The notes beneath the pieces were generated by a model. That model was not told the DNA's origin. It was given only the letters and a program-made list of their open reading frames with translations, and ran no database searches. Positions 1,880-22,255 of a stretch of DNA of 32,000 nt are shown here, piece after piece. The stretch spans positions 1,860,001-1,892,000 of the forward strand of contig NZ_CP066019.1 in NCBI RefSeq assembly GCF_016127575.1, read 5' to 3'. The first letter of the stretch is position 1. Each line of letters opens with the position of its first letter. The translations under genes and the position numbers were made by a program. The stretch comes from Cupriavidus necator. Lineage in GTDB: Bacteria > Pseudomonadota > Gammaproteobacteria > Burkholderiales > Burkholderiaceae.

Positions 1880-1895
1880 GGTATGTGATATATCA
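1880..1895 (-). promoter_or_regulatory. Box 1 of the 16-nt GGTATGTGATATATCA motif (16/16), about 105 nt upstream of the oxlT copy 1 ATG
   Basis: Read directly. ATACGGTATGTGATATATCAG (1876..1896) is identical in boxes 1, 3 and 4. Confidence 0.7.
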
Positions 1896-2453
1896 GGTAA
1901 GTCAAGCGTATTCGTCGCGGCTCTGCAGCATGGGACCGCGGTGAGTGACGCCTGGGTGGCCGTTGCTGCAGTGCGACTGGTGCGCACACTGCATCAATGG
2001 CCGGTCCGACAGCATCCGGAGTCGTTGGAAATCAAGCAGTTGCCATGCATCGGCACATTAATCGGCCGACTGATGGCATCCGCAAGAATGCCGGGGATCG
2101 CGCCCCGGAAAAATCGGGAAAACGATGAATTGGGGAAAGTCCCTAGATGCATACATTAATGTCTGATGACGCGCGTATGGCTTGGGAACGACGCCGGAAG
2201 CGGCGTTAAAGACACAGCAGGGAGCCTGCCGGCCTGGAACCGGGGCGCAGGAAGAGGGGTCGTGCCGGGCGATCGCTGGCAGCGATCGGGGAGGAAGATG
2301 GTGGCGGCCGCAGGTTCGTGCAGAACCCTGCCCTGGCTCGCGGCGAATGCCGCAGATCAGGTATCAACCGAGGTACTGCCACAAGGGGTGCCGGCCGCTA
2401 CAACCCTTGCTGGTTGCGCGGTTCAGCGCGATGGCGCATGGCGCCGGCGCGCA

Positions 2454-2672
2454 TTACGCGTAGGCCAGCTCACCGGCAGCGGGCACAATGCGCGACGGGC
2501 TGGCACGGCCCACGCCATCGCCTTCCTGGTTCGAGCCCAGGCCGGCGAAGCGACCGTGCTCCTGCGCGGTCACCAGCACGTCCATCGGCAGGCGCGTGGC
2601 CAGCAGCGTGGTCACGCCGGCACCGGCAGCAATCAGGCCCAGGCCAAGAGCGAAGAGAAGAGCGACTTCCAT
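2454..2672 (-). CDS. Small (72 aa) hypothetical membrane-anchored or secreted protein
   Basis: ORF MEVALLFALGLGLIAAGAGVTTLLATRLP... has a hydrophobic N-terminus and a GGAG SD 7 nt before the ATG. Third codon positions are mostly G/C. Box 2 lies about 70 nt upstream. I recognise no homologue. Confidence 0.5.
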   Translation of the reverse strand: MEVALLFALGLGLIAAGAGVTTLLATRLPMDVLVTAQEHGRFAGLGSNQEGDGVGRASPSRIVPAAGELAYA

Positions 2673-2742
2673 TTGAAAACTCCAATAGCGTTGTGATCAG
2701 GAGTTTTCATTATATGCTGCACCGCACTATGTGTAAATATCC

Positions 2743-2758
2743 TGTATGTGATATATCA
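2743..2758 (-). promoter_or_regulatory. Box 2 (TGTATGTGATATATCA, 15/16) upstream of the 72-aa ORF
   Basis: Read directly. Same orientation relative to the downstream minus-strand gene as boxes 1, 3 and 4. Confidence 0.6.
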
Positions 2759-2820
2759 ATAGAAGTTTTGCACTAATACAACGAATGCCCGCCCCATGCC
2801 CCCCTGATGAGCCGATTGCC

Positions 2821-3744
2821 TCACACCATGGTGGTTTTTCGATGCACCACCGGCGACTCCTGATATTCCTGGCCACGCAAGGCATCCCAGATTGCCGCGG
2901 CATTGGGCTTGAGCGAGCGGCTCTTGCGCCGAACCAGCATCACCGTGGAAGTCACCTGCGGACGCAGCGGCCGCATCACTGCCGCCGGATTCATGCCGCC
3001 CACCTGGGCACGCGACGGCACCACGCCGATGCCAAGGCCCAGCGCCACCATGCCGAACACTGCGGCAAAGTGGCCGAGCAACTGCAGCGAGCCCGCGCGC
3101 ACGTGATAGCTGCTGAGCGCCTTCTCCACCGCGGGCTGCATGCCGCACTGCTGGTCCAGGGCCAGCACGCGGGCATCGCTCAGGTCGCCCCACCCTACCG
3201 CGTCGCGCATCGCCAGCGGGTGCTGGGCGGGCAGGACGGCGTGGTAGGCATCGACGCACAGCGGTTCACAATAGAGGTCGTCGGTTGGCTTCGGATCGGT
3301 GGCAATGCCGAAGTCCACCTCGCCGCTGCGCACGCTTTGCAGCACCGACTCCTGCGAGCGGTCCTTCAGGTGGATGGCAATCGCCGGCCACGCTTGCCGG
3401 CAGCCGGCCAGCCACGTCGGCACCGACATCGAGCTGAGCACCGGATCCGAAGCGATCTGCACCAGGCCCTGGCACGGACGGCTGGCGCTCTGGCTGTCGC
3501 GCAGGGTCTGCTCGACCTCTTCGATCAGGTGGCAGATGCGCTGCGACAGGTGCTGGCCGGCATCGGTCAGTTCCACCTGGCGCGTGGTACGGTCGAACAG
3601 GCGCTGGTCGATCTCTTCTTCCAGTTCACGCACGCTGCGGCTGACCGCGGATTGCGTCAGGCCCAGTTCAACCGAGGCACGCGTAAAGCTCTTGTGCCGC
3701 GCCACTGCGGCGAAGGCCTTCAGTTGGGGGAGCGAGATATTCAC
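2821..3744 (-). CDS. LysR-family transcriptional regulator
   Basis: 307-aa ORF with GTG start. N-terminal wHTH (LPQLKAFAAVARHKSFTRASVELGLTQSAVSRSVRELE) followed by a LysR substrate-binding-type C-terminus. Confidence 0.85.
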   Translation of the reverse strand: MNISLPQLKAFAAVARHKSFTRASVELGLTQSAVSRSVRELEEEIDQRLFDRTTRQVELTDAGQHLSQRICHLIEEVEQTLRDSQSASRPCQGLVQIASDPVLSSMSVPTWLAGCRQAWPAIAIHLKDRSQESVLQSVRSGEVDFGIATDPKPTDDLYCEPLCVDAYHAVLPAQHPLAMRDAVGWGDLSDARVLALDQQCGMQPAVEKALSSYHVRAGSLQLLGHFAAVFGMVALGLGIGVVPSRAQVGGMNPAAVMRPLRPQVTSTVMLVRRKSRSLKPNAAAIWDALRGQEYQESPVVHRKTTMV

Positions 3745-3973: not shown

Positions 3974-4053
3974 GATTGATGCTACTTGAATCTAAGATCA
4001 GCACTGCATAAAGTTTTTTATCGTTTATATAGCCAATCGTTTATATATTGCAC
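3974..4053. promoter_or_regulatory. 80-bp conserved block A (LysR-type operator candidate) immediately upstream of the CbbR-like regulator
   Basis: Hand ungapped alignment with 14477..14556 gives 59/80 identities. Perfect sub-blocks are GATTGATGCTAC, TAAAGTTTTTTATCGTTT and ATCGTTTATATAT. Contains ATCGTTTATATA twice, 16 bp apart (4020 and 4036). Confidence 0.55.
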
Positions 4054-4062
4054 GGGACGAGG

Positions 4063-5004
4063 ATGAGGAACGCCACACTGCGGCAGTTGAAGGTCTTTGA
4101 GACCGTTGCCCGCCATATGAGCTTTTCACGCGCTGCCGAGGAACTGCACCTGACGCAGCCCGCGGTATCGACCCAGGTGCGCCAGCTGGAGCACCACGTG
4201 GGGCTGCCCCTGTTCGAGCAGTTGGGCAAGAAGATCTACCTGACCCCGGCGGGCCACGAGATGCTGCATTACAGTCGCAGCATCATCCAGCAGTTCCGCG
4301 AGGCCGAAGACGCCATGTCCCAGCTCAAGGGCATCTCCGGCGGCCGGCTCAACGTGGCGGTGATCAGCGCCGGCGACTATTTCTTTCCGCGCCTGCTGGC
4401 CGAGTTCATGAACCGCCATGAAGGCGTGACGCTGAACCTTGCCGTGCATAACCGCGAGGAATTGCTGCACCAGCTGGCCGGCAACCTGACCGACCTGGCG
4501 GTGATGGTGCGTCCGCCCGAAGGCATGGACACCATCAACGAGGCCTTCGCCCCCCATCCCTATGTCATCGTGGCTGCGCCCACCCACCCGCTGGTCGGAC
4601 AGCGCAATATCCCGCTGGCCGAGCTGGCTGATGAAGCCTTCGTTTCACGCGAGAAAGGCTCGGATACCTGGAATTCAATGCAGGAGGGCTTTGCCGGGCG
4701 TCTGTCGAACATGCGCATCGCGATGGAGATCAAGAGCACCGAGACCATCAAGCAGGCCGTGATCGCCAATATGGGCATCGCCTTCCTGTCGGCGCACACG
4801 GTCGGCCTGGAATTGCAGGCCGGCAAGCTCGCGGTGCTGGACATCGAGGGCTTCCCGGTGATGCTCAACTGGTATGTGGTGCACCGCAAGAACAAGCGGC
4901 TGCCACCGGTGGCGCTGGCGTTCAAGCAGTTCCTGATGGAGGAAGGCGCGGGACTGATCGAGCGGATTACCGGGGTGGAAGGTTTGATCAGTCAGAATGC
5001 ATAA
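4063..5004 (+). CDS. LysR-family regulator, CbbR-like
   Basis: The ORF track starts at TTG 4048; I prefer ATG 4063 (MRNATLRQLKVFETVARHMSFSRAAEELHLTQPAVSTQVRQLE...). The HTH and the IKQAV..GMGI..LS.HT.GLEL segment closely resemble CbbR as I remember it. Confidence 0.85.
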   Translation: MRNATLRQLKVFETVARHMSFSRAAEELHLTQPAVSTQVRQLEHHVGLPLFEQLGKKIYLTPAGHEMLHYSRSIIQQFREAEDAMSQLKGISGGRLNVAVISAGDYFFPRLLAEFMNRHEGVTLNLAVHNREELLHQLAGNLTDLAVMVRPPEGMDTINEAFAPHPYVIVAAPTHPLVGQRNIPLAELADEAFVSREKGSDTWNSMQEGFAGRLSNMRIAMEIKSTETIKQAVIANMGIAFLSAHTVGLELQAGKLAVLDIEGFPVMLNWYVVHRKNKRLPPVALAFKQFLMEEGAGLIERITGVEGLISQNA

Positions 5005-5027
5005 ACAATTGATTATGGTTTCGCTAT

Positions 5028-5479: not shown

Positions 5480-5797
5480 TCAGGCGAGGTCGGCCTCCGC
5501 TGCCTTACCTGCGGGGCGGGGCAGCCGTTTGATGCGCTTGCGCGGCCTTTGCGCCGCGACCCAGAGGTCGTATGCCATCTGCATGCCGCCCCACATCTCG
5601 CGGCTCGCGCCCAGGGCTCCTTCCAGGCGAATGGCAATATCCGGCGTGATCGATGCATGACCATTCAGGATGCGCGAGAGCGTTGCGCGCGTCACGCTGA
5701 TGTGCGCGGCGAACGCCGTAATGGTCATATCGTCCATGCCAGCGAGCCAATCGGCCAGCACCGCGCCGGGGTGCGGCGGGTTGTGCATGCGCGTCAT
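5480..5797 (-). CDS. higA: HigA-family antitoxin (Xre-type HTH)
   Basis: Internal ATG at 5797 of the 195-aa track ORF gives MTRMHNPPHPGAVLADWLAGMDDMTITAFAAHISVTRATLSRILNGHASITPDIAIRLEGALG, a typical HigA/VapI N-terminus. It starts 11 nt after the reconstructed higB stop. Confidence 0.8.
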   Translation of the reverse strand: MTRMHNPPHPGAVLADWLAGMDDMTITAFAAHISVTRATLSRILNGHASITPDIAIRLEGALGASREMWGGMQMAYDLWVAAQRPRKRIKRLPRPAGKAAEADLA

Positions 5798-5808
5798 GAT
5801 GAAGTCCT

Positions 5809-6086
5809 TCAGTGGTAGTCCTGGTAATCGACGACGATGACGTCGATGCCGTCGAACATGAATGTCAGCCGCCAGTTGCCATTGACGCTGACAGACCAGG
5901 GCCGGACATGTCGCCGCCCAGTTGATGCAGCTTCCAACCTGGCACCCCCATGTCCCGGGGTCTCGTGGCGTGATCCAGCGCACCGAGCTGATTGCGCAAT
6001 CTCTGCGCGTGATGCGGCTGGATTCCCGCCTTGGAGCCAGTCTCGAAGAAACGTTTGAGGCCCGCATGGGCGAAACTCTTGATCAT
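5809..6086 (-). pseudogene. higB: HigB-family toxin gene with a 1-nt frameshift
   Basis: MIKSFAHAGLKRFFETGSKAGIQPHHAQRLRNQLGALD...WKLHQLGGDMSGP then leaves frame. The adjacent frame reads WSVSVNGNWRLTFMFDGIDVIVVDYQDYH* with its stop at 5809..5811. The span is 278 nt (not a multiple of 3). The shift maps to the G/C run CCAGGGCC at 5897..5904. Confidence 0.65.
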
Positions 6087-6339
6087 CGATTTCCAGGTAG
6101 CAAAGAATGTATAAGCGTTAGAAGCTTGCTTGCGTTGCCGGGGACGGACTCTATCACCTGAAGCGCACTGGGAAACCAGTCGGCGGCTGCTTTTGAGCCA
6201 TTACTCATTCCGCGCCTGGGGGAGCTGGCGATGTGCCGGCCGGCATGGATCCATTGCCATGCCGGCCCGGGCGCAGTCGTCGTAAGATTCGGCATCAACA
6301 CTCACGCGCCCGCCACTTGCCCGGCTTGCCACCCGTTTC

Positions 6340-6945
6340 ATGCCGACTCGACGCACCGACGAAGAATTTGCCCACGAACTGACCCGGCTGCTGAGCACCG
6401 AAGGCGTGTCGTCGCTGACCATCGGCGAGATTGCCCGACGCATGCGCTGCTCACGGCGGCGCCTGTACGAGATCGCGCCGACCAAGGAAGCGCTATTCGT
6501 CGGCATCTGCCGCGACGTGCTCGCTGACAACCTGGAAAGGGGCTTTGCCGCGGCGCGCCGCGAAAGCGATGCGGCGCGGGCAGTGTCCGCCTACCTGCAT
6601 GCCGCGCTCAACACATCGGGACTGAGCAAGGCCGCGCTGGCGGACCTGGATGCGATCGACAGCGGCCGGGCGGCATTCGACGACTACCAGCTGGCGCGCG
6701 TGCGCGGGCTTGAGAGCCTGCTCGAGGCAGGCATGCGGCAAGGGCTGATGGCGCCGCACAATCCGCGGCTGGTTTCCGAAGCGATCCTGGGCGCCGCGCA
6801 CCGGCTGCGCAACCAGCAGTTCCTGAAGGAAACCGGCCTGAAGATCGGCGATGCCTTCAGCGAGTTCTACGAGATCATCCTGAACGGCCTGCTGTGCCGC
6901 GCGGACACCGGCGCGCGCTCGTCCCAGCCGCACGCCGGAAGGTAA
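6340..6945 (+). CDS. TetR-family transcriptional regulator
   Basis: 201-aa ORF with an N-terminal HTH (LTIGEIARRMRCSRRRLYEIAPTKEALF) and an all-helical C-terminus. Confidence 0.75.
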   Translation: MPTRRTDEEFAHELTRLLSTEGVSSLTIGEIARRMRCSRRRLYEIAPTKEALFVGICRDVLADNLERGFAAARRESDAARAVSAYLHAALNTSGLSKAALADLDAIDSGRAAFDDYQLARVRGLESLLEAGMRQGLMAPHNPRLVSEAILGAAHRLRNQQFLKETGLKIGDAFSEFYEIILNGLLCRADTGARSSQPHAGR

Positions 6946-6951
6946 CCGCGC

Positions 6952-8529
6952 TCAGGCCACCTGCCTCTCCTGGCCGCCCCAGTAGCGGCCGCGGATGGCC
7001 TTGCGGTCGATCTTGCCCAGCGCGGTCAGCGGCAGCTCATCCACGAACACCACCTGCTTGGGCGCATTGACCACGCCCTTGTGCTGCGTCACGTGGCCGA
7101 TCACGTCGGCCTCGGTAAGCGCGGCACCGGGCCGTGCCACGACCACGGCGGTGACCGCCTCGCCCCACTTGGGGTCGGGGATGCCGATCACCGCGGACAT
7201 GGCGATGGCCGGGTGCAGCGCCAGGCAATGCTCCACCTCGCTCGGGTACACGTTGAAGCCGCCGCTGATGATCATGTCCTTGGCGCGGTCGACGATGTAC
7301 AGGAAGCCCTCGCTGTCGCAACGGGCCATGTCGCCGGTATGCAGCCAGTCGCCGGCAAAGACCTTGGCGTCTTCCTCGGGCCGGTTCAGGTAGCCTTCCA
7401 TCACCAGCGGACCGCGCACGCACAGCTCGCCCACCTCGCCCGGCGCGACTTCACGCAGGTCGGGGTCCAGCAGCTTGACCTGGTTGCCCGGGATCACCTT
7501 GCCGCACGAGCGCAGGCGCTCGGGGTTGTCCGGATCGTGGTCGCGCTGGCTCAGGTAGCTGATGCACATCGGCACTTCAGCCTGGCCATAGACCTGTCCG
7601 AACACCGGGCCGATGCGGCGCAGCGCGTCAGCGAGACGCACCGGCGCGATCGGCGCCGCGCCGTAGAGCACCAGCTCCAGGCTGGACAGGTCGGCCGCGT
7701 CCAGCCCGTCGCAATCGAGCAGGCCATAGATCTGCGTGGGCACCAAAAAGGTCAGGTTGATCCGTTGTTCGGCCACGCGTCGCAGGAAATCGGCGGGACT
7801 GAACTTGTCGCACACGTAGATGGTGCCGCCGCGCAGCAGCGTCGGCAGGAACAGGCTGCCGGACGCATGCGAGATCGGCGTGGTCACCAGATAGCGGATC
7901 TGCGCCGGCCATTCGTAGCTGGCCAGCATGTACTGCAGCACCGTCACCGTGGTCCGGTGCGTATGCAGGATGCCCTTGGAACGGCCAGTGGTGCCGCCGG
8001 TATAGGCCAGCCGGCTGATTTCCGTGGGGTCGTCGCCGGGAACCACGGGCGTGTCATCGAACGCAGCCGCCGCATTGGCCAGGCCAGGCCCGAACTCGCC
8101 ATCGTCCAGCGGCAGGACCTGCAGGCCGGCGCCAGCTGCCAGCACGCGCGCGCGCTCGGTGAAGCGGGCGTTGTCCACCACCAGCGCCCGCACCCCGGCA
8201 TCCTGCAGCACGAAGGCGTGATCCGCTTCCGATGCCATCGGATGCAGCGACACATTCTTCAGCCCGGCCAGCTGCGCGGCGATGATGGCGGCGACCGCTT
8301 CGGCGCGGTTGCCCACCAGGAAGGCCACGGCATCCTGGCGCGCCAGGCCGCGGGCGGCAAACAGCCGCGCGACGCGCGCGCACTGCCGCGCGAGCGCCTC
8401 ATAGCTCAGCGTGGTGTCGTCGCCGACGATGGCGGGCACGCCGGGCCTGGCACGCAGCGCGGCCGCATAGAGCTGGCCCACCGTAGCGCCGCCATGGACT
8501 ACCGCAGCGGCCGAAGCTTGACGGCTCAT
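6952..8529 (-). CDS. AMP-dependent acyl-CoA synthetase/ligase
   Basis: 525-aa ORF with SD GAGGAGA. Has the AMP-binding motif YTGGTTGRSKG, then GELCVRGP, WLHTGD and the C-terminal GKIDRK. Confidence 0.88.
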   Translation of the reverse strand: MSRQASAAAVVHGGATVGQLYAAALRARPGVPAIVGDDTTLSYEALARQCARVARLFAARGLARQDAVAFLVGNRAEAVAAIIAAQLAGLKNVSLHPMASEADHAFVLQDAGVRALVVDNARFTERARVLAAGAGLQVLPLDDGEFGPGLANAAAAFDDTPVVPGDDPTEISRLAYTGGTTGRSKGILHTHRTTVTVLQYMLASYEWPAQIRYLVTTPISHASGSLFLPTLLRGGTIYVCDKFSPADFLRRVAEQRINLTFLVPTQIYGLLDCDGLDAADLSSLELVLYGAAPIAPVRLADALRRIGPVFGQVYGQAEVPMCISYLSQRDHDPDNPERLRSCGKVIPGNQVKLLDPDLREVAPGEVGELCVRGPLVMEGYLNRPEEDAKVFAGDWLHTGDMARCDSEGFLYIVDRAKDMIISGGFNVYPSEVEHCLALHPAIAMSAVIGIPDPKWGEAVTAVVVARPGAALTEADVIGHVTQHKGVVNAPKQVVFVDELPLTALGKIDRKAIRGRYWGGQERQVA

Positions 8530-8808: not shown

Positions 8809-9246
8809 TCAGGCCTGTTCCTTGACCTGGTTTTCCAGCTCCACCAGCCGCTTCTTCAGCGCCCGCTCCTCCTGGAAGCGCACGGTCTCGTCGCGGATCA
8901 CGGCGACGATGCCGGTGATGGCGCCCGCATCATCCTTGAGCAGCGCCACGGTGAAGGCGATCGACATGGCCTTGCCGTCCTTGTCGACCGCGGGCACCTT
9001 GAGCAGGTCGTGGCCGTAGCGCGTGATGCCGGTCGCCATGGTCTTGCCGTAGCCCTCCCAGTGCCGCCCGCGCAGGCGCTCAGGGATGATCAGGTCGAGC
9101 GACTTGCCCATGGCCTCGGCCTGGGTAAAGCCGAACATGCGCTCGGCGGCGGGATTCCATAGCGTGATGGCGCCCTTGGCGTCGGAGATGATGATGGCGT
9201 CGCCGATGGCGGACACCAGTTGCGCGTAATCGATCTGGTCTGTCAT
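8809..9246 (-). CDS. Stand-alone PAS-domain protein with a C-terminal coiled coil (FixL-like PAS)
   Basis: ATG 9246 with SD GAGGGA (the track ORF starts at 9330). ITLWNPAAERMFGFTQAEAMGKSLDLIIPERLRGRHWEGYGKTMATG parallels the FixL heme-PAS stretch FGY...G.[23 protein letters not shown]. No output domain. Confidence 0.75.
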   Translation of the reverse strand: MTDQIDYAQLVSAIGDAIIISDAKGAITLWNPAAERMFGFTQAEAMGKSLDLIIPERLRGRHWEGYGKTMATGITRYGHDLLKVPAVDKDGKAMSIAFTVALLKDDAGAITGIVAVIRDETVRFQEERALKKRLVELENQVKEQA

Positions 9247-9332
9247 GGGGATTCCCTCGTTATTCCCAGGGCCGGTCGGCGCCAGCCTGTCATGGCCATC
9301 AAGGTAGCGTGCCACATGGCCACGCTGCAAGC

Positions 9333-9370
9333 AAAAACGCCGGGGCCCGCTATGCGCGAGACCCCGGCGT
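9333..9370 (-). terminator. Probable rho-independent terminator after frc
   Basis: Minus strand reads ACGCCGGGG...CCCCGGCG followed by TTTTT. It lies 32 nt past the frc stop. Confidence 0.5.
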
Positions 9371-9401
9371 ACACTCCGGCCACAAGTGCCGGCGGGCAGC
9401 G

Positions 9402-10652
9402 TCAGATCACCTGGGACTCGCGCAGGCGCTTGATGTCGTCCGCGCCGTAGCCCAGGCCGGCCAGCACCTCTTCGCTATGCTCGCCCAGCAGTGGCGACCC
9501 GGTGATCTCCGGCTTGAGGTCGGAGAACTTGATCGGGCTGCCCACCGTCAGGTAGGTACCGCGCTCCTTGTGCGGCACCTCGGTGATGCTGCCGCTGGCG
9601 CGCAGCGACGGATCGGCGGCGATTTCCTTCATCGACAGCACCGGCGAGCACGGGATGTCGAACTTGCGCAGGATGTCCACGGCCTCGTACTTGGTCTTGT
9701 CGGCCAGCCATTCCTCGATGGTGTTGAAGATATCGAAGATATGCGGCTGGCGAGCCTTGGCGGTGGCGTAGTTGGGATCGGAAATCCATTCCGGCTTGCC
9801 CAGCGCCTTGCAGATCGGCTCCCAGGCATGGCCCTGGATGGTGAAGTAGATATAGGCGTTGGGGTCGGTTTCCCACCCCTTGCACTTCAGCACCCAGCCC
9901 GGCTGGCCGCCGCCGCCCGCGTTGCCGCCGCGCGGCACCACGTCGCTGAAGCTGCCGTGCGGATACTGCGGGTACTCCTCCAGGTAGCCCAGGCGGTCCA
10001 GGCGCTGCTGGTCGCGCAGCTTGACCCGGCACAGGTTCAGCACCGCATCCTGCATCGACACAGCCACCTTCTGGCCCTTGCCGGTCTTGTCGCGGCCGAT
10101 CAGCGCGGTGAGGATGCCGATGGCCAGGTGCATGCCGGTGTTGGAATCGCCCAGCGCCGCGGCGGACACCGTCGGCGGGCCATCCCAGAAGCCGGTGGTC
10201 GAGGCCGCGCCGCCGGCGCACTGGGCCACGTTCTCGTAGACCTTCAGGTCTTCATAGTGGTGGCCGTCGCTGAAGCCCTTGACCGAAGCCACGATCATCT
10301 TCGGGTTCAGTTCGTTGATGCGTTCCCACGAGAACCCCATGCGGTCCAGCGCGCCCGGGCCGAAGTTCTCGACCAGCACGTCCGACTCGCGGATCAGCTG
10401 CTCCAGGATCTTCTTGCCTTCCGGCTTCTTGGTATCCAGCGTCAGGCTGCGCTTGTTGCTGTTGAGCATGGTGAAGTACAGGGCATCGACATCCGGGATG
10501 TCGCGCAGCTGGGTGCGCGTCACGTCGCCGGAACCGGGGCGCTCGACCTTGATCACGTCCGCACCGAACCACGCGAGAAGCTGCGTGCAGGCGGGACCGG
10601 CCTGGACGTGCGTGAAGTCGATGATCTTGATGCCGTTGAGTGGGAGGTTCAC
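9402..10652 (-). CDS. frc: Formyl-CoA:oxalate CoA-transferase
   Basis: 416 aa, GTG start with SD AGGAGAA. Near-colinear with my recollection of O. formigenes Frc ([74 protein letters not shown]). Confidence 0.92.
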
Positions 10653-10694
10653 TTTCGTTCTCCTATTGGATCAGAGGGGTGAAATTCGGGTGAA

Positions 10695-12657: not shown

Positions 12658-12673
12658 GGTATGTGATATATCA
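12658..12673 (-). promoter_or_regulatory. Box 3 (16/16), about 223 nt upstream of the oxc ATG
   Basis: Read directly. Embedded in a 32-nt stretch (12645..12676) identical to 19963..19994. Confidence 0.7.
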
Positions 12674-12849: not shown

Positions 12850-12865
12850 AGATATACTACATACC
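12850..12865 (+). promoter_or_regulatory. Box 8, degenerate and inverted (AGATATACTACATACC, 13/16)
   Basis: Read directly. Opposite orientation to box 3, with centres about 192 bp apart. Confidence 0.35.
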
Positions 12866-14660: not shown

Positions 14661-14707
14661 TCGCGGCCGCCTGAACTGCTCAGCTTGGAGACCTCGACTC
14701 GACCAAC

Positions 14708-16105
14708 TCAGGCCGGCGCTTCCTCCAGCTGCCTCAGCAGGGCATCGACACTGCCCTTGGCGTCGCCGAACCACATCCGCGTGTTGTCCTTGTAGAACAA
14801 CGGGTTGTCCACGCCCGCATAGCCCGCCGCCATGCTGCGCTTGGACACCACCACGGTGCGGGCCTTCCAGACTTCCAGCACCGGCATGCCGGCAATGGGG
14901 CTGCCCGGGTCTTCCAGCGCACCGGGGTTGACGATGTCGTTGGCGCCCACCACCAGCACCACGTCGGCCTTCTCGAAGTCGTCGTTGATCTCTTCCATCT
15001 CCAGCACGATGTCGTACGGCACGCGCGCCTCGGCCAGCAGCACGTTCATGTGCCCGGGCAGGCGGCCTGCGACCGGGTGGATGCCGAAGCGCACGGTGAC
15101 GCCCTGCGCCCGCAGCCGCCGCGCGATCTCGCTGATGGTGCCCTGCGCCTGCGCCACCGCCATGCCGTAGCCCGGCACGATGATCACGTCGCTGGCGTCC
15201 TTGAGCAGGTTGCCGACTTCCTCGCTGGACACCGGCAGCACCTCGCCCTGCTCGGTCGCCGCGCCCTGTGCCTGCACCGCGCCGAAGCCGCCCAGGATCA
15301 CCGACAGGAACTTGCGGTTCATCGCCTTGCACATGATGTAGCTGAGGATGGCGCCGCTCGATCCCACCAGCGCCCCGGTGATGATCAGCAGGTCGTTGCC
15401 CAGCATGAAGCCGGTGGCCGCCGCGGCCCAGCCGGAGTAGCTGTTGAGCATCGAAACCACCACCGGCATGTCGGCGCCGCCGATGGCCAGCACCAGGTGC
15501 GCGCCGACCAGCAGCGCAATCACCGTCATCGCCGCCAGCGGCACCAGCCCCTGCTGCGCGTCGGGCGCGCTCAGGAAGGCATAGCCCAGCCACACGCAAA
15601 CCAGCAGCGCGATGGCATTCAAGGCATGCCGCCCGGGCAGCAGCATCGGCTTGCCGCCCATGGTGCCCTGCAGCTTCAGGAAGGCGATGATCGAGCCCGT
15701 GAACGTGACCGCGCCGATCAGGATGCCAAGGTAGGTTTCCACTTCATGGATGGCCTTCTCCGCGCCGGTCAGCGCATGGCTATCCAGGTAGTTGGCATAA
15801 CCCACCAGCACCGCGGCCAGGCCGACGAAGCTGTGCAGCACCGCCACCAACTGCGGCATCTGCGTCATTTCCACGCGCCTGGCCAGCATGGCACCGGCGA
15901 TGCCGCCCACCAGCATCGCGCCGATGATGATGGCGATGCCGTCCGGGCTGCCCGCCAGCACGGTGGTCAGCACCGCGATCACCATGCCGGCGATGCCCAG
16001 CAGGTTGCCGCGGCGCGCGGTGCCGGGGTGGCTCAGCCCGCTCAGGCTGAGGATGAAGAGCGCGCTGGCGCCCAGGTAAGCGATATTGCTGATTCCGGAT
16101 GGCAT
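14708..16105 (-). CDS. pntB: NAD(P) transhydrogenase subunit beta
   Basis: 465 aa with an N-terminal polytopic membrane domain and a C-terminal dIII NADP(H) domain ([44 protein letters not shown]). Confidence 0.92.
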
Positions 16106-16121
16106 CCCTGTCTCCCCGTCT

Positions 16122-17684
16122 CTAGTCCCGCTGGAACATCTTGAGCATGCGCTGCGTCACCAGGAAGCCGCCGGCGATATTGATGGTGGCCAGCAGCACC
16201 GCGCTGCCGGCAATCACCGCCGTCAGCAGCGACGGCTTGCCCAGCTGCACCAGCGCGCCCACCACGATGATCCCGCTGATGGCATTGGTCACGCTCATCA
16301 GTGGCGTATGCAGCGCGGCGGTGACGTTCCACACCACCTGGTAGCCGACAAAGATCGCCAGCACGAACACCGTGAAATGCGCCATGAAGGCCGGCGGCGC
16401 GACCGCGCCCAGGCCCAGCAGCGCCGCCGCCGCGATGGCCAGCGCGATCAGCGTCGCGCCGGTGCGGCTGCGCGGCGGCTCGGCCTCGGCCTGCACCGGC
16501 GGCGGCGCGGCCGGCGCCTGCTGCTGCGGGATCGCCACCGTCAGCGGCGGCGGTGGCCAGGTCACCGTGCCCTGGTGCAGCACCGTGGCACCGCGGATCA
16601 TCTCGTCGTCCATGTCGACCACGAGCTGGCCGTCCTTGCCCGGCGTCAGCTCCGTCAGCAGGTGGCGGATATTGGTGCCATAGAGCTGGCTGGCCTGCGC
16701 CGCCATGCGGCTGGGCAGGTCGGTGTAGCCGATGATGGTGACGCCGTGCTGCCGCACCGCCTCGCCCGGAACGGTCAGCACGCAGTTGCCGCCCTGCTCA
16801 GCAGCCAGGTCGACCACCACGCTGCCGGCGCGCATCAGGCCCACCGTGCCGGCCTCGAGCAGCTTGGGAGCGGGCCTGCCCGGGATCAGCGCGGTGGTGA
16901 TGATGATGTCGACCTCGCGCGCCTGTTCGGCAAAGAGACGCATCTCGGCTTCGATAAAGGCCGGGCTCATCTCCTTGGCATAGCCGCCGCTGCCGCTGCC
17001 GTCCTCTTCGATCTCGACGGTCAGGAACTCGGCGCCCAGGCTTTCGATCTGCTGGCGCACCACCGGCCGCGTATCGAAGGCGCGCACCACCGCACCCAGG
17101 CTGCGCGCCGCGCCGATGGCCGCCAGCCCCGCCACGCCCGCGCCGATCACCAGCACGCGCGCCGGCGGGATCTTGCCCGCGGCCGTGATCTGCCCGGCAA
17201 AGGGCCGCCCGAACGCATGCGCGGCTTCGATCACCGCGCGGTAGCCCGCCATATTGGCCATCGAGCTGAGCGCGTCCAGCTTCTGCGCGCGCGAGATGCG
17301 CGGCACGCAGTCCATCGCCAGCACGGTTGCGCCGCGCTGCGTCAGCCGCTCCAGCATCGCCATCTGCTGCGCCGGCCAGACAAAGCCGATCAGCGTGGCA
17401 TGCTTCTTCAGCAGCGCCGCCTCTTCCACGCCCAGGCTGGGATGGACCTGCGGCGGGCGCACCTTGATCACCACATCGACCGAAGCCCACAGGCTGGCCG
17501 CGTCGACAATGGCCGCACCGGCGGCGCTGTAGTCAGCGTCGGAGAACGACGCTTCCTGGCCGGCGCCGGTCTCCACCACCACCTGGTAGCCCAGCTTGAG
17601 CAGTTCCCTGACCGAGTCGGGCGTGGCGGCAACGCGCCGCTCGCCCGGGTGGACTTCGCGTGGCACACCGATCGTCATTGGCAT
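16122..17684 (-). CDS. pntA: NAD(P) transhydrogenase subunit alpha (fused dI + dII-N)
   Basis: Start chosen at [11 protein letters not shown] (ATG 17684; ATG 17678 is also possible), whereas the track ORF starts at 17783 and overlaps the upstream gene. Has the Ala-dehydrogenase-like dI fold ([14 protein letters not shown]) and C-terminal TM helices. Confidence 0.9.
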
Positions 17685-17721
17685 GGCATTCACCGTTTTA
17701 TGGAAGGAATCAGGCGCCGGC

Positions 17722-18504
17722 TCAGCCGCGCACGTGGTTGACCAGCGAGCCGATGCCCGCGATCGCCACCTCGACCACCGCACCGTCCTTCATCGACCCC
17801 ACGCCGATCGAGGTGCCGCACGCAATCACGTCGCCGGGCATCAGCGTCAGGTCCTGCGAGATCCGGCTGACCTGTTCCTCGGGCGAGAAGACCATGTCCG
17901 ACAGCGGGTAGTTCTGCCGCTCGACGCCATCGAGCCGCGTGATGACGCTGGCGGCTTTCCAGTTGAAGCCGCAGACAATGGCCGGGCCGATGCAGCCGAA
18001 GGTGTCGAAGCCCTTGGCGCGCGTCCACTGCGGGAAGTTGGGGTCGGCCGTGATCAGCTCGGCCGCGGTCACGTCGTTGACGACGGTGTAGCCAAAGATA
18101 TGCGCGCCGGCCTCGGCCACCGACACATTGCGCGCCTTGCTGCCGATCACGATGCCCAGCTCGCCCTCATAGACGATCTTGCCGTCGTAGCTCTTGGGGC
18201 GCAGCACGGCATCGCCCGGCCCGGCCAGCGACGAGGCCGGCTTGAGCAGGAACAGCGGATGCGTGGGCACGGGCTTTTCCAGCTTGCGCGCGAGTGCGTG
18301 GAAGTTGTTCCACAGTGCCACCACCTTGCCCGGCGCACAGGGCGCGAGCAGCGTCAGCGACGCGCGCTCATGCACGGCGCCGGTGGGGGCGGGGTCGTTG
18401 AAACCGTCGCCGTCATATTCGACGACACGGTTGCCATCGGCTTCGTCGATGCGGCCATGGCCGATGCTGCCGTCAGCGCGGCGAAAGCGTATCCAGGTTT
18501 GCAC
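17722..18504 (-). CDS. Fumarylacetoacetate hydrolase (FAH)-family protein, substrate unknown
   Basis: 260 aa, GTG start 6 nt after SD AAGGAG. FAH-fold motifs are present ([33 protein letters not shown]-like [11 protein letters not shown]). Confidence 0.85.
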
Positions 18505-18602
18505 AGCATGCTCCTTGCGCAGGCAAAGCGGGCCCTGCCTGCTCCGATGTCGGTTGCAGGATCTTGGAAGAAATGGGATCGTGGGCGGCTCGCGCCCGGA
18601 TT

Positions 18603-18630
18603 CGTCATTCCCGCACAGGCGGGAATGACG
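18603..18630. repeat. Perfect 12-bp-stem palindrome (REP-like) between frc2 and the FAH gene
   Basis: CGTCATTCCCGC acag GCGGGAATGACG, with no U-tract on either strand. Confidence 0.6.
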
Positions 18631-18641
18631 TCAGGCTTGCG

Positions 18642-19874
18642 TCATACCGCGCCGGCCAGCTTCATCGCGGCGATCTGCGCGGGCGAGCGCCCCAGCCACT
18701 CGAGAATCTCTTCGGTATGCTCGCCCAGCAGCGGCGAACGCTCGATCTCCACCGGCGATGCCGAGAGCGTGATCGGGCAGCCCAGCTGCACGTAGCTGCC
18801 GCGCTGCGGGTGCTCCAGCGCCTTCAGGTAGCCGCGCTGGTACAGCGACTCGTCCTCGATCAGGTCCTTCATCGACAGGATCGGGCCGCACGGAACATCG
18901 ACCTCGTTGAGCGCCGCCATCACGTCGAACTTGCTGCGGCCACCGGTCCATTTCTCGATCACGGCGAAGCAGTCGGCCAGGTGCTTGAGGCGTGCTTCTG
19001 GCGTGGCGTAGTCCGGATTGGTGATCAGGTCCTCGCGCCCGCACAGGCGCATCAGCGGCTCCCAGCCTTGCGGCTGGATGATGACGTAGACATAGTCGTT
19101 GGGGCCGCCCGGCGCGCAGCGCAGCGCCGCGCCCGGCTGGCCGCCGCCCGAGGCATTGCCGGCGCGCGGCACGTGGTCGCCGAACTCTTCGTTCGGGTAC
19201 TCGCGCAGCGGGCCGTTGGCCAGGCGCTGCTGGTCGCGCAGCTTGACGCGGCACAGGTTCAGCACCGCGTCCTGCATCGCCACTTCCACGCGCTGGCCGC
19301 GGCCGGTGTGCTCGCGCTGCAGCAGCGCGGCCAGGATGCCGACCACGCAATGCACGCCCGTGCCCGAATCACCGATCTGCGCGCCGGTGACAGTGGGCAC
19401 GCCCTCGGCATCGCCCGTGGTGGAGGCCGAACCGCCCATGCACTGGGCCACGTTCTCATACGCCTTGCAGTCCGCGTACGGCCCCGGGCCGAAGCCCTTG
19501 ATCGAGGCATAGACCAGCCGCGGGTTCAGGTCCTGCAGGTGGTCCCAGTCAAAGCCCGCGCGCTCGAGCACGCCCGGCCCGAAGTTCTCGATCAGCACGT
19601 CGCTGCGCTGGACCAGGTCTTCGAGCAGCGCCTTGCCTTCGGGCGTCTTCATGTTCAGCGTCAGGCTGCGCTTGTTGCTGTTGAGCATGGTGAAGTACAG
19701 GCTGTCGGCATTGGGCACGTCGCGCAGCTGGCTGCGGGTGATGTCCCCGCGGCCGGGCATTTCCACCTTGATCACGTCCGCGCCCAGCCACGCCATCAGC
19801 TGCGTGGCCGAGGGGCCCGCCTGGACGTGGGTCATGTCCAGGATGCGAACGCCTTGCAGTGCCTTGGTTTCCAT
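18642..19874 (-). CDS. Formyl-CoA transferase paralogue (class III CoA-transferase)
   Basis: I place the start at [25 protein letters not shown] (ATG 19874, SD GGAGA). The track ORF start at 19973 would overlap box 4. Colinear with Frc but divergent in the central insertion ([27 protein letters not shown]). Confidence 0.85.
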
Positions 19875-19975: not shown

Positions 19976-19991
19976 GGTATGTGATATATCA
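19976..19991 (-). promoter_or_regulatory. Box 4 (16/16), about 101 nt upstream of the frc2 ATG
   Basis: Read directly. Confidence 0.7.
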
Positions 19992-20124
19992 GAAGAGAGC
20001 AAGAGGAGTTTGCCCGATGCAACACAAATTTCGACGATGCAATGCAGCAATCGGCCTGCTTTGCTTGCCCGAAGTGGGAAACCCAGTGAAATCCCGAATC
20101 AGTCAGCCAGCATCTTTTTCGCAT

Positions 20125-20140
20125 TGATATATCACATACC
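20125..20140 (+). promoter_or_regulatory. Box 5 (16/16), inverted relative to box 4
   Basis: TGATATATCACATACC on the plus strand. Centres of boxes 4 and 5 are about 149 bp apart. It lies between the frc2 promoter and the gntR terminator. Confidence 0.6.
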
Positions 20141-20174: not shown

Positions 20175-20212
20175 TACAAAAGCAAAACGGCGGACCAAGG
20201 TCCGCCGTTTTG
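20175..20212 (-). terminator. Rho-independent terminator after the GntR gene
   Basis: AAAACGGCGGA ccaagg TCCGCCGTTTT. The minus strand continues with TTTTGCTTTTG. Confidence 0.75.
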
Positions 20213-20232
20213 CCGCCCTACCCCGCCCGCCT

Positions 20233-20952
20233 TCAGTCGAGGAAGTCGCAGTGCCGTTCCACGTAGTCAGCCAGATCCAGCGAATGCTGCCGCACCAGCC
20301 GCTCGGCCAGCTCGGTATCGCGTTTCTCCAGCGCCTCGATGATGCGCAGGTGGTCCACGATGGAGCGTGCCGCCCGGTCGCTCTGCGAGATCGTCATCTT
20401 CCGGATCGCGCGCACGTGGATAAAGATATTGCGGATCGTGTCCATGATGATGTGCGACTTGGACAGCTGCACGATCGCCTGGTGGAAGGCGATATTGGCG
20501 TCGGAATACTCTTCGATATGCTCGGCCGGAGTGGAATCGCGGAAGCTGTCGAACATGCTGCGCAGCTGCGCGATCTCGGCATCGGTGGCGTTCTCGGTGG
20601 CCAGCCGCGCGGCCATGCTTTCCAGCGCGGCCCACATCTGGATCATCTCCACGATCTCGCGCTTGGTCTTGCGCATGATGTAGATGCCGCGCCGGGGCAC
20701 GGTGCGCAGGAAGCCCTCCTGCTCCAGCAGCGTCATGGCTTCGCGGATGGGCGTGCGGCTGACACCCATGGCCTCGCTCAGTACCCGCTCATCGAGGCGG
20801 ATCTCGTCGCGCGACTGGTAGATGTCAGCGTCGGCGATGGCCTGGCGCAACATGGCGTAGGCCTGGTCGCGCAGGCTCGCGCCGGCATTGATCGGTTGCA
20901 CGGACAAGGCCAGCCCGTTGGGCTGGACGATGGATTGGCTTTGCGCAGACAT
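20233..20952 (-). CDS. GntR-family regulator, FadR subfamily (wHTH + FCD domain); candidate regulator of the 16-nt box
   Basis: Start preferred at MSAQSQ (ATG 20952); the track uses GTG 21015. HTH is LDERVLSEAMGVSRTPIREAMTLLEQEGFL, and the all-helical FCD-type C-terminus carries conserved His residues (FHQAIV, DHLRII). Confidence 0.85.
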   Translation of the reverse strand: MSAQSQSIVQPNGLALSVQPINAGASLRDQAYAMLRQAIADADIYQSRDEIRLDERVLSEAMGVSRTPIREAMTLLEQEGFLRTVPRRGIYIMRKTKREIVEMIQMWAALESMAARLATENATDAEIAQLRSMFDSFRDSTPAEHIEEYSDANIAFHQAIVQLSKSHIIMDTIRNIFIHVRAIRKMTISQSDRAARSIVDHLRIIEALEKRDTELAERLVRQHSLDLADYVERHCDFLD

Positions 20953-21104
20953 GAATGAGCTCGTGTGAGACCAGCGGCAGGGTGGCCGGAATGGCTGCCC
21001 CCCGCATTGCCGCACAGCTTAGCAAAAACGCCGGACCCATTACGAAAACGCATCAAACAATGCGTTGTTGTCATGCATCGGCACAGTAGCGGTGCGCGGT
21101 CTGT

Positions 21105-21120
21105 CGTATATGGTATATCA
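21105..21120 (-). promoter_or_regulatory. Box 6 (CGTATATGGTATATCA, 13/16), about 153 nt upstream of the GntR gene
   Basis: Read directly. Same orientation as boxes 1-4. Confidence 0.45.
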
Positions 21121-21228
21121 CTATCGCCTGCCTTTCTCGCTTCGCAAGCCCGGCCAACGCTACCTTGGCGCGCCTGGCGTGCGCCAGGGGATACCTGACC
21201 CGGCGGTATCCCCTGTTCCCAGCCGCGC

Positions 21229-22206
21229 TCAGGCGGCCAGCTTGGCCATCGTGTCGCGCTGCTTGATCAGACCCAGCACGGCATCGCACATCGGCGTGGG
21301 CTGCGCGACCAGACGTCCCATTTCCTGCACCACGGTCAGCAGCGGGTCGATTTCCATGGCCCGCCCGGCCTCCAGGTCCTGCAGCATCGAGGTCTTGTGC
21401 GCGCCCACGGCACCGGCGCCGTCGATGCGCCGCTCCACGTCGACGCGGAATTTCACCCCGAAGCGCTCGGCGATGCCCTGCGCCTCAACCATCATCTGGC
21501 GCGACAGCGCCCGCGTGGCCGGGTCGGCGGTGATGACGTCGAGCGTGGCATGCGTGAGCGCGCTGATCGGGTTGAAGCACAGGTTGCCCCACAGCTTGAG
21601 CCAGATCTCGTCGCGGATATTGTCGCGCACCGGGGCGTCCAGGTCGGCGGCCATCATCATTTCGCTGAGCCGGGTCACGCGCGCCGAGCGGCTGCCATCC
21701 GGCTCGCCCAGCGGAAACTTCTTGCCGTAGACGTGCTTGATCACGCCCGGCGCAACGATCTCAGCCGCGGGATAGACCACGCAGCCGATCGCCCGCTCCG
21801 GCCCCAGGCCCTTCCATTGGCGCCCGCCGGGATCGACGCTTTCCAGCGTGCTGCCGGCCAAGTCGCCGCCATGCTTGTAGAAATACCAGTACGGAATGCC
21901 GTTGACGCCGGTGACGACCGCGGTTTCCGGCCCCAGCAGCGGCTGCATCTGGTCCACCACGCCCGGCACGGAATGCGCCTTGAGGGTGATGAACACATAG
22001 TCCTGGTGTCCGAGCTCGCGCGGATCGCTGGTGCAGCGCACCTTGGCCACGCGCTCCTCGCCGTCGATCAGCAGCCTGACACCATGTTCCTGCATTGCCG
22101 CGAGATGGGGGCCGCGCGCGACGAAGCTGACCTCCGCCCCCGCGCGCGCCAGCTGCGCCCCGACATAGCCGCCGATCGCGCCTGCGCCGTAGATACACAC
22201 TTTCAT
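21229..22206 (-). CDS. Ketopantoate reductase (PanE/ApbA)-family oxidoreductase; candidate oxalyl-CoA reductase
   Basis: 325 aa. Has an N-terminal Rossmann motif (MKVCIYGAGAIGGYVGAQLARAG) and the PanE C-terminal helical domain (KTSMLQDLE.GR..EID). Confidence 0.8.
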   Translation of the reverse strand: MKVCIYGAGAIGGYVGAQLARAGAEVSFVARGPHLAAMQEHGVRLLIDGEERVAKVRCTSDPRELGHQDYVFITLKAHSVPGVVDQMQPLLGPETAVVTGVNGIPYWYFYKHGGDLAGSTLESVDPGGRQWKGLGPERAIGCVVYPAAEIVAPGVIKHVYGKKFPLGEPDGSRSARVTRLSEMMMAADLDAPVRDNIRDEIWLKLWGNLCFNPISALTHATLDVITADPATRALSRQMMVEAQGIAERFGVKFRVDVERRIDGAGAVGAHKTSMLQDLEAGRAMEIDPLLTVVQEMGRLVAQPTPMCDAVLGLIKQRDTMAKLAA

Positions 22207-22239
22207 TGCTGTCTCCTTGATGGCTCGATTTGGATCTTT

Positions 22240-22255
22240 TGATATATCACATACT
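22240..22255 (+). promoter_or_regulatory. Box 7 (TGATATATCACATACT, 15/16) in the panE-like / terC divergent intergenic region
   Basis: Read directly. It lies about 33 nt from the panE-like ATG and 158 nt from the terC ATG. Confidence 0.55.

Follow-up and report, generated by a model that had tools for sequence, protein, structure and literature searches.

Which factor reads the 16-nucleotide (nt) box that recurs between the oxalate genes of Cupriavidus necator, and what does it do there? The box lies in a stretch of 32,000 nt (assembly GCF_016127575.1, contig NZ_CP066019.1, positions 1,860,001 to 1,892,000), here called the window, which encodes oxalate/formate antiporters, formyl-CoA transferases and oxalyl-CoA decarboxylase together with several putative regulators. 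An earlier note, made from the letters of this stretch, had proposed that the box is the operator of the GntR-type gene at 20233-20952 (gntR). Conservation at orthologous promoters, co-occurrence of box and regulator from beta- to alphaproteobacteria, covariation of regulator and site, and absence of the box from flanking DNA all support this proposal. We therefore consider it probable that the box is the operator of the GntR/FCD protein encoded by gntR, and that this protein most likely represses one compact oxalate-assimilation regulon (coordinates are collected in Table 1).

A mismatch-tolerant search of the whole window with GGTATGTGATATATCA returned exactly eight matches at up to three mismatches, against 0.04 expected in shuffled sequence, and none of 100 shuffles reached eight. 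The positions and strands of the boxes listed in the earlier note were thereby recovered exactly. Real genes were told from spurious open reading frames (ORFs) by codon-position G+C (GC3), Pfam and NCBIfam in this window of 64% G+C, and all eight boxes proved to be intergenic, as had been claimed. The overlap of the box at 12850 involves spurious ORFs only, and the box at 19976 lies 3 nt beyond the longest frc2 ORF, the actual frc2 start being the ATG at 19874 behind a GAGGAGA ribosome-binding site. A uniform orientation relative to the gene, also claimed, holds for five boxes and breaks down for the three inverted ones (12850, 20125 and 22240), so that orientation is not fixed; the first two of these are the distal members of mirrored pairs and the third faces panE. 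Apart from the frc2 and oxc promoters, which are paralogous, sequence likeness around the boxes ends after about 15-21 nt.

Class-specific consensus sequences showed that positions 2-16 of the box, GTATGTGATATATCA, are common to six promoter contexts. The invariant part is GTAT.T..TATATCA, and positions 8 and 9 vary (GA, GG, AG or AA). Because of this variation, the 10-bp palindrome with a one-sided extension that the note had described is perfect in only part of the sites, and the description does not hold in general. The element of about 15 nt, GTAT-G-T-[GA][AG]-TATATCA, can be read either as a 10-bp dyad (TGATATATCA) that carries a GTATG arm on its 5' side or as two tandem GTATRTN heptamers, and the latter is the better reading for the autoregulatory sites (CGTATATGGTATATCA in Cupriavidus, GTATGTAGTATATCA in Paraburkholderia). 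A few sites are full palindromes of 20-22 bp, e.g. CGTATGTGATATATCACATACG in locus L034. A leftward extension of the motif, ATAYnGTAT, appeared in the pooled site profile and was dropped, as the class-specific consensus shows that this flank depends on the promoter class; since they differ in this way, the bases left of the 15-mer were not counted as operator.

Conservation was analyzed in three Cupriavidus chromids from a plasmid collection and 80 loci around GntR orthologs from Cupriavidus, Paraburkholderia, Caballeronia, Pandoraea, Candidimonas and Paralcaligenes (84 sequences, 1.67 Mb; loci carry L numbers). The presence of the box at orthologous promoters had been named as a check, and in Cupriavidus and the related loci it was indeed found at the same genes: the three chromids carry it upstream of the same genes, and about 80 genomes of Cupriavidus, Paraburkholderia, Pandoraea and Caballeronia have it, nearly unchanged, at these promoters. 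In the 84 sequences, 296 non-overlapping sites with up to three mismatches were detected. Apart from about 15, they are located no more than a few hundred bases upstream of gntR, panE, frc/frc2, oxc or oxlT-1; the exceptions are sites at orf72 (the gene of a 72-residue protein), two matches inside terC that are due to chance, and sites located where contigs end. Alignments of the promoter classes display the box as a conserved island amid otherwise variable intergenic DNA. With up to two mismatches allowed, GTATGTGATATATCA had no match in the 573,527 nt outside the cluster spans and 327 strand-reads inside them. Conservation at orthologous promoters together with this absence from flanking DNA rules out a high-copy dispersed repeat.

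A conserved site upstream of gntR, or of an orf72-gntR pair, is present in about 75 of the 84 sequences. The variant found in box 7 is identical at the same place in 22 Cupriavidus loci, and the loci of C. gilardii and C. cauae in which only panE and gntR are left still contain the autoregulatory site. Autoregulation of gntR, as proposed before, is thus supported by a site kept ahead of the gene across genomes. The route suggested for it, through box 6 (20125), has to be given up: box 6 lies downstream of the gntR stop codon and terminator and is a candidate distal frc2 operator, while the conserved autoregulatory site is the one at 21105. Across genera with an unchanged box, GntR orthologs are 80-99% identical, with hardly any variation in helix alpha2 and the recognition helix. 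The closest GntR sequences belong to C. necator- and C. taiwanensis-like strains, the database homologs having 239 aa.

In three Caballeronia loci and in the second of two tandem paralogs in locus L070, helix alpha2 reads RLDEKELTE instead of RLDERVLSE, and the own promoters of regulators of this type have variant boxes with the core TTGTATATCA. The Arg-to-Lys change in RLDEKELTE falls at a position that, aligned by eye, matches what we take to be the base-contacting Arg35 of FadR. L070 itself (9983-12262; Paraburkholderia sp. GAS448) harbors two tandem regulator paralogs, 78% and 70% identical, which differ in helix alpha2; a separate box variant precedes each of them, and a Caballeronia-type box is found at the oxc gene that follows. 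These tandem paralogs are a natural test case for operator specificity.

Two alphaproteobacterial oxc-frc loci were fetched as negative controls. Since they carry regulator orthologs (55-60% identical) beside oxc as well as a related motif, they became positive evidence. A plasmid protein search further revealed orthologs of 52-63% identity in Azospirillum, Skermanella, Phyllobacterium, Methylobacterium and Paracoccus, and the ortholog was located beside oxc, oxlT or formate dehydrogenase genes in four of the five fetched alphaproteobacterial loci in addition to the two control loci. The alphaproteobacterial sites, GTAT(G/C)TGG(T/C)ATACCA and GTATNTGGYATACCA, are found upstream of the regulator and of its oxc, oxlT or fdh neighbours, and their core TGGYATACCA fits the FadR-subfamily consensus TKGT/ACMA (PMC4494728).

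A metagenome scan with the exact 15-mer GTATGTGATATATCA returned 120 contigs and was useful only after G+C filtering, as 99 of them were low-G+C chance matches. Oxalate-cluster genes are present on 14 of the 21 high-G+C contigs, and one further contig represents an orf72 promoter. In addition, four contigs (L099 at 8328, L144 at 420, L146 at 567 and L160 at 877) encode unrelated GntR/FCD proteins, 25-42% identical to that of the window, with exact GTATGTGATATATCA 10-150 nt upstream of the start of the GntR/FCD gene itself, in L160 as the full 20-bp palindrome. Given that only 0.1-0.5 such cases were expected by chance, as estimated from the background density of helix-turn-helix signatures, these self-linked cases indicate that this type of sequence is a GntR/FCD operator. 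One operator sequence thus seems, as judged from these contigs, to be reused by distinct FCD lineages. The neighbours of the four genes are serine hydroxymethyltransferase-like, FAD-oxidoreductase and branched-chain ABC-transporter genes. On another metagenome contig (L209, 64% G+C) the box, at 2457-2471, lies just upstream of fdsG-like (NuoE-type) and fdsB-like (Complex1_51K) genes. The gntR-oxc clusters of Skermanella and Azospirillum include fdh genes. Because of the position of the L209 box, the regulon may take in NAD-dependent formate dehydrogenase in some bacteria.

The gntR product combines an N-terminal GntR winged helix-turn-helix (wHTH) domain (PF00392, E = 3.9e-12) with a C-terminal FCD domain (PF07729, E = 1e-26). 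An AlphaFold2 model (pLDDT 81.5) has a disordered N-terminus of 21 residues, three helices and a two-strand wing at residues 27-92, and six C-terminal helices (97-121, 124-140, 146-163, 167-188, 191-209 and 213-234). Six helices in the C-terminal domain distinguish the VanR group from FadR proper, which has seven (PMC7797058). The designation FadR-type, used in the earlier note, is thus replaced: the six-helix FCD domain of the model places the regulator in the VanR group. Top matches in Foldseek were all FCD regulators, the best being a Brucella GntR, PmiR, Atu1419 and McbR. In a sequence alignment the motifs D..FH, DH..I and H of the FCD pocket, whose Asp and His residues may bind a divalent metal, align with PmiR, and histidines 145, 157, 179, 201 and 223 are invariant. 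The protein scored below the cut-off of every named NCBIfam family, the best being phnR_burk (106.6 against 271.5 bits), and it was far below the cut-offs of the NanR, LldR, GlcC and PdhR models (NanR NF003011: 64.8 against 260 bits).

To what effect the regulator might bind can be read from the consensus-based promoter assignments. At oxlT-1 the core of box 1 is located between a -35-like TTGACT (1900-1905, minus strand) and a -10-like TACCGT (1878-1883, minus strand). The panE promoter-like site (minus strand) consists of TTGCCA (22274-22279), a spacer of 17 nt and TAGTAT (22251-22256; alternatively TATAGT), so that the -10 falls on the left box edge, and the core on the predicted start site. 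Promoters of the Caballeronia type have a clear TTGACT-16-TATTGT overlapping the core. At the proximal boxes of oxlT-1, frc, frc2 and oxc a conserved CTTGnn precedes the core by 4-5 nt and TACCGT follows it, so that the core would fill the promoter spacer. The orf72 promoter of the window has its -35 (TTTACA, 2732-2737) and -10 (TATAAT, 2709-2714) on the minus strand; across loci these promoters are near consensus (TTGATT, TTGACG or TTTACA, 17 nt, TATGAT or TATAAT), with the box ending 5 nt upstream. A second box is found in the frc2 and oxc promoters and in the frc promoters of Paraburkholderia, and it is mirrored in 65 of 66 pairs. The core-to-core spacing of these pairs is 99-272 nt, with modal values of 152, 185 and 157 nt; the distal site orthologous to box 4 lies 183-186 nt away in 15 related Cupriavidus loci.

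From the location of the boxes on core promoter elements, the mode of action is most likely repression by promoter occlusion. GntR would bind the box and occlude the -10 and start site at panE and the spacer at oxlT-1, frc2 and oxc, and it would sit beside the -35 at orf72. Its targets would include uptake (oxlT-1), activation and decarboxylation (frc, frc2 and oxc) and the conversion of oxalyl-CoA to glyoxylate (panE/apbA2), as well as pntAB for NADPH supply by operon membership, orf72 and gntR itself. The mirrored second box 143-186 nt upstream at frc2 and oxc might allow cooperative binding or looping, and the repressor would leave the box upon binding a ligand derived from oxalate (oxalate, oxalyl-CoA, formyl-CoA or glyoxylate).

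Several observations weigh against the assignment to gntR or against repression. In essence a single regulator lineage, that with RLDEKELTE, provides the covariation. The core of the betaproteobacterial sites, TGAT..ATCA, does not follow the canonical GT..AC pattern, and a model with a simple symmetric dimer is not entirely satisfactory, given that the right half, TATATCA, is the only invariant one. Synteny with the cluster is seen for LysR1 and LysR2 in Burkholderiaceae, and the window contains a second GntR/FCD gene. A scan for the sigma-70 consensus found the panE promoter only, and a manual search yielded no convincing -10 at the proximal boxes of frc2 and oxc. The box of orf72 lies at about -56 to -41, a position that is also used by activators. 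No helical phasing at 10.5 bp was detected in the spacing of the box pairs, which together with the variable spacing gives no positive support for looping; with regard to a tetramer and a DNA loop, the lack of phasing is neutral or slightly unfavourable.

Some of these points would suit a GntR that binds the same box mainly as an activator or as a dual regulator and recruits RNA polymerase to the weak frc2 and oxc promoters when an oxalate-derived ligand is present. Some members of the FadR subfamily, e.g. FadR and GlcC, activate transcription. The box of orf72, just upstream of the -35, stands where class I or class II activators typically bind, and no good -10/-35 pair was found at the proximal boxes of frc2 and oxc. 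We nevertheless regard this alternative as doubtful, since the box at panE covers the predicted -10 and start site, the Caballeronia-type core overlaps a clear promoter, the near-consensus orf72 promoter should need no activator, and the closest characterized relatives are repressors (PMC7797058).

That another nearby factor (LysR1, LysR2 or the second GntR/FCD protein) binds the box and gntR is a mere passenger is highly unlikely. Both LysR genes accompany the cluster in most Burkholderiaceae loci, but the box occurs in none of the LysR2-oxlT-2 intergenic regions, LysR2 has a repeated element of its own (repeat D18) in common with the region upstream of oxlT-2, and LysR1 is conserved at only 41-49% where the box is identical. 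Moreover, the C. gilardii and alphaproteobacterial loci keep box and gntR without either LysR gene, and the box is not a T-N11-A LysR motif. As to the second GntR/FCD protein, the wHTH domain of the metagenomic regulator in L144, which has the same 15-mer, is nearer to it than to the first (54% against 42%). Its gene, however, which the earlier note did not consider, lacks a box in its promoter and is not conserved together with the box, and it was not found in the Paraburkholderia loci. The second protein is 34% identical to the first, and its gene adjoins an EamA-family transporter gene (25747-26697, minus strand). Among the remaining candidates, the XRE, TetR and AMP-ligase genes were rejected as they are not conserved in related loci, and the PAS protein because Pfam detects no DNA-binding domain in it. 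Scarcely credible is the idea that the box is no regulator site at all and instead an alternative-sigma promoter element, a dispersed repeat of the repetitive extragenic palindrome or miniature inverted-repeat type, or a transcribed RNA motif: its left flank does hold TAnnnT hexamers in both orientations and the window does encode an extracytoplasmic function (ECF) sigma factor, yet the box works in both orientations and at variable gene distances, only about 15 nt are conserved while the flanks differ by promoter class, the 573 kb of flanking DNA lack it, no Rfam family matches anywhere in the window, and two thirds of the high-G+C metagenome contigs with the 15-mer (14 of 21) carry oxalate-cluster genes.

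How does a GntR repressor on this box compare with known systems? PmiR from Pseudomonas aeruginosa (PDB 7xp0, 7xp1; named from Foldseek) has a different regulon, the methylcitrate cycle. Among solved structures it is nearest in sequence (E = 1e-19, 28% identity), with the same domain architecture and the FCD-pocket motifs D..FH, H..I and H. Atu1419 from Agrobacterium fabrum (PDB 6z74, 6za3), a GntR/FCD repressor of the VanR group, binds 10-bp palindromes overlapping the -10; as a tetramer it brings two of them, 190 bp apart, together in a loop (PMC7797058). Both systems share the wHTH and six-helix FCD fold, a 10-bp AT-rich palindrome, two operators in one promoter region (about 190 bp apart for Atu1419) and control of a catabolic cluster plus the regulator's own gene. 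They differ in that the proteins are only about 24% identical, the palindrome is ATGTATACAT in one and TGATATATCA with a 5' GTATG arm in the other, and the Atu1419 cluster serves hydroxycinnamate; tetramer and looping are shown for Atu1419, and the pairs described here vary in spacing. By analogy, looping by Atu1419 provides a precedent for the paired boxes, not evidence of looping at them. NanR is an exception in the FadR subfamily and binds direct repeats of TGGTATAW (PMC4494728). This sialic-acid repressor of Escherichia coli resembles the present system in its tandem GGTATA-type repeats, a unit that is also contained in the autoregulatory sites (GTATATG-GTATATC), and in an N-terminal extension ahead of the wHTH domain; NanR uses three repeats with a period of 8-9 nt, whereas the two units of the present sites have a 7-nt period and are merged with a dyad, and sequence similarity is weak. 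The operators of FadR, PdhR, LldR, GlcC and UxuR/ExuR (TKGT-N(2-3)-ACMA) are likewise AT-rich dyads for wHTH dimers, usually promoter-overlapping and autoregulatory, while in Burkholderiaceae the core is altered symmetrically from G to A and from C to T (TGAT..ATCA), an arm is conserved on one side, and of the two halves only the right one is invariant. The Burkholderiaceae box, whose strand lacks an AC, does not conform to the canonical NyGT-Nx-AC-Ny form with TKGT/ACMA, whereas the alphaproteobacterial sites do. Acid or pH induction of oxc and frc in Lactobacillus and Bifidobacterium concerns the same target enzymes but is acid-stress regulation; in E. coli, EvgAS controls yfdXWUVE, an acid-stress system with the same target enzymes.

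Among the presumptive targets, box 8 (22240), which had been left without a gene, is assigned to panE/apbA2 by its conserved position: in 36 loci it lies 26-49 nt (median 35) upstream of panE, whichever divergent gene, terC or mdoG, is present. The apbA2 gene of C. necator, near frc-oxc, was proposed to encode a CoA-acylating glyoxylate dehydrogenase (oxalyl-CoA reductase), and on oxalate its deletion slows growth while deletion of frc-oxc abolishes it (PMC7486775). The panE/apbA2 homolog of the window is, by analogy, likely an oxalyl-CoA reductase. Both antiporter genes of the major facilitator superfamily (MFS), both frc genes and oxc score above the NCBIfam equivalog cut-offs for oxalate/formate antiporter, formyl-CoA transferase and oxalyl-CoA decarboxylase, respectively. 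The order oxc-frc-PAS is identical in L001, L002, L007, L008 and L011-L013. pntAB is tied to the box by predicted operon structure only: frc2-FAH-pntA-pntB ends at a strong intrinsic terminator (14620-14662), and its order is kept in L004-L016, L019, L093 and L142. The box-linked genes and PntAB-supplied NADPH form a coherent set for oxalate uptake, oxidation and assimilation.

The orf72 product contains a single hydrophobic (transmembrane) helix and a conserved motif, HGRF.GL; it is 100% identical to a C. necator protein and has no Pfam or NCBIfam family match. Its sequence conservation marks orf72 as a real gene for a predicted small single-pass membrane protein. In every non-Cupriavidus locus an orf72 homolog lies directly upstream of gntR, with which it is predicted to be co-transcribed there, whereas in Cupriavidus the two are unlinked. 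In Cupriavidus 70-71 nt separate the box from the orf72 ATG; in about 45 loci of Paraburkholderia, Pandoraea and relatives the distance is mostly 71 nt (range 67-94), and the Caballeronia loci have a variant box at a similar distance. Since orf72 adjoins gntR outside Cupriavidus at an unchanged box spacing, the arrangement box-orf72-gntR looks ancestral. Small ORFs near oxlT in Phyllobacterium and Paracoccus were considered as orf72 and turned out not to be homologs. One could imagine that orf72 encodes a partner of GntR or of the antiporter, e.g. a membrane co-sensor, and that together with a GntR tetramer clamping the mirrored boxes it makes up a transport-coupled looping switch, an arrangement undescribed for the family; we think this improbable. 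In the 5' untranslated region of orf72 in Cupriavidus, GAAAACTCC can pair with GGAGTTTTC (2675-2683 and 2700-2708), which would sequester the ribosome-binding site, and L003 has wobble-compatible changes. The Paraburkholderia loci (L034-L083) have, downstream of the -10 and about 40-70 nt ahead of the orf72 ATG, a palindrome that reaches 23 bp (ATTGAGTCATT-C-AATGACTCAAT) and shows compensatory changes in some species. This palindrome may represent an RNA hairpin or a second operator.

The second antiporter gene, oxlT-2, is located beyond the terminator at 14620-14662 and has no box. A 43-nt direct repeat (86% identical) of ATCGTTTATATA units is found just upstream of LysR2 (4009-4051) and upstream of oxlT-2 (14512-14554). 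Because LysR2 is divergent from oxlT-2 in relatives, this repeat is probably the LysR2 operator. oxlT-2 thus seems, from these sequence features, to stand outside the box regulon in a separate LysR circuit, a second control of oxalate transport.

Table 1. Genes and boxes of the window, in order of position (gap: distance in nt from box to start codon; mismatches are counted against GGTATGTGATATATCA)
Feature	Position	Strand	Gap	Remarks
oxlT-1, oxalate/formate MFS antiporter	455-1774	-		Pfam MFS_1; NCBIfam TIGR04259, 629.5 bits (cut-off 335)
box 1	1880..1895	+	105	perfect copy; proximal candidate operator of oxlT-1; orthologous site upstream of MFS1 homolog in L002, L003, L034, L073, L080, L143, L156
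orf72 (72-aa ORF)	2454-2672	-		
box 2	2743..2758	+	70	1 mismatch; candidate operator abutting -35 of orf72 promoter
LysR1	2821-3744	-		
LysR2	4048-5004	+		
XRE, TetR, AMP-ligase genes	5480-8529	mixed		
oxc-frc-PAS operon	8809-12434	-		oxc 10695-12434, frc 9402-10652, PAS-domain gene 8809-9330; Pfam; NCBIfam TIGR03254, TIGR03253 above cut-off
box 3	12658..12673	+	223	perfect copy; proximal candidate operator of oxc-frc-PAS operon (gap to oxc); kept in Cupriavidus loci
box 4	12850..12865	-		3 mismatches (13/16 positions match); distal mirrored candidate operator of oxc; core centre 186 nt from that of box 3
oxlT-2	13020-14363	-		
frc2-FAH-pntAB operon	14708-19874	-		frc2 18642-19874, FAH-family 17722-18504, pntA 16122-17783 (longest ORF), pntB 14708-16105; Pfam, NCBIfam
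box 5	19976..19991	+	101	perfect copy; proximal candidate operator of frc2-FAH-pntAB (gap to frc2)
box 6	20125..20140	-		perfect copy; distal mirrored candidate operator of frc2, between gntR terminator and frc2 promoter; core centre 143 nt from that of box 5
gntR (GntR + FCD)	20233-20952	-		Pfam PF00392, PF07729; ATG 20952; intrinsic terminator ~20175-20211
box 7	21105..21120	+	152	3 mismatches; candidate autoregulatory site CGTATATGGTATATCA upstream of gntR ATG
panE/apbA2 homolog	21229-22206	-		Pfam ApbA, ApbA_C; NCBIfam NF005089
box 8	22240..22255	-	33	1 mismatch; candidate operator of panE/apbA2, overlapping predicted -10
terC, mdoG	22413-24912	+		
second GntR + FCD gene	25030-25722	+		

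Further elements were noticed in and around the box promoters. A 54-nt stretch around box 5 is paralogous with the oxc promoter (repeat D14). In these paralogous frc2 and oxc promoters (20010-20060 and 12690-12760, minus strand) TTGCTGC(A/G)nnGCAnCGnCGAAA is conserved about 45-75 nt upstream of the proximal box in Cupriavidus loci, and CTGCAnTGCAG-like strings also occur in Caballeronia and Paracoccus promoters; another factor may bind this element. Read as a sigma-54 promoter, the TGCTGCA region was a poor fit by eye, and this reading was discarded. Between the box at 12658 and the oxc start, the oxc leader (12482-12538, minus strand) contains an upstream ORF of 18 codons (MSEVVEAKRVGSTTRKTP) behind a strong GAGGAGA ribosome-binding site. 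In 13 Cupriavidus species the ORF has been retained along with its ribosome-binding site and N-terminus MSEVVAKR, the C-terminus varies, and the ORF could be a leader peptide or attenuator.

LysR2 and PAS-frc-oxc are separated by the XRE, TetR and AMP-dependent ligase genes. These are without counterpart in the three related Cupriavidus chromids, and from this comparison the block looks like an insertion into the cluster. The region 26700-32000 has a lower third-position G+C and contains the ECF sigma factor gene (28755-29273), a possible anti-sigma gene (29270-30028), an alpha/beta hydrolase gene (30132-30998) and a truncated rve-type integrase gene at the window end (31560-32000); it is probably acquired DNA.

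The earlier note knew of no characterized regulator of a betaproteobacterial oxalate regulon, and the literature that we found agrees: none of it links a GntR regulator to oxc/frc genes, and no dedicated oxalate-responsive regulator of oxc/frc was found described in it. A review of 2024 calls the regulation of oxc and frc understudied (PMC13409138), and a survey of GntR motifs makes no mention of oxalate (PMC4494728). As a local GntR/FCD regulator of an organic-acid pathway, the protein is of a well-known kind; the features worth testing are the non-canonical asymmetric operator, the mirrored operator pairs and a small membrane protein, itself conserved, that is encoded in one operon with the regulator. 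Oxalotrophy is a source for the oxalate-carbonate pathway of soils and aids root colonisation by plant-associated Burkholderiaceae, and oxalate degradation is also of medical interest. With the present analysis a candidate regulator, its operator and its target promoters are named in C. necator, a genetically tractable biotechnology host, and members of the same regulator family accompany oxalate genes from Burkholderiaceae to Azospirillum, Methylobacterium and Paracoccus. If GntR indeed controls these promoters, this would explain the timing of expression of the oxalyl-CoA route, an issue that PMC7486775 did not settle. It would further provide an oxalate-responsive regulator/promoter pair for biosensors or inducible expression, and would flag an unannotated small membrane protein as a component of the system.

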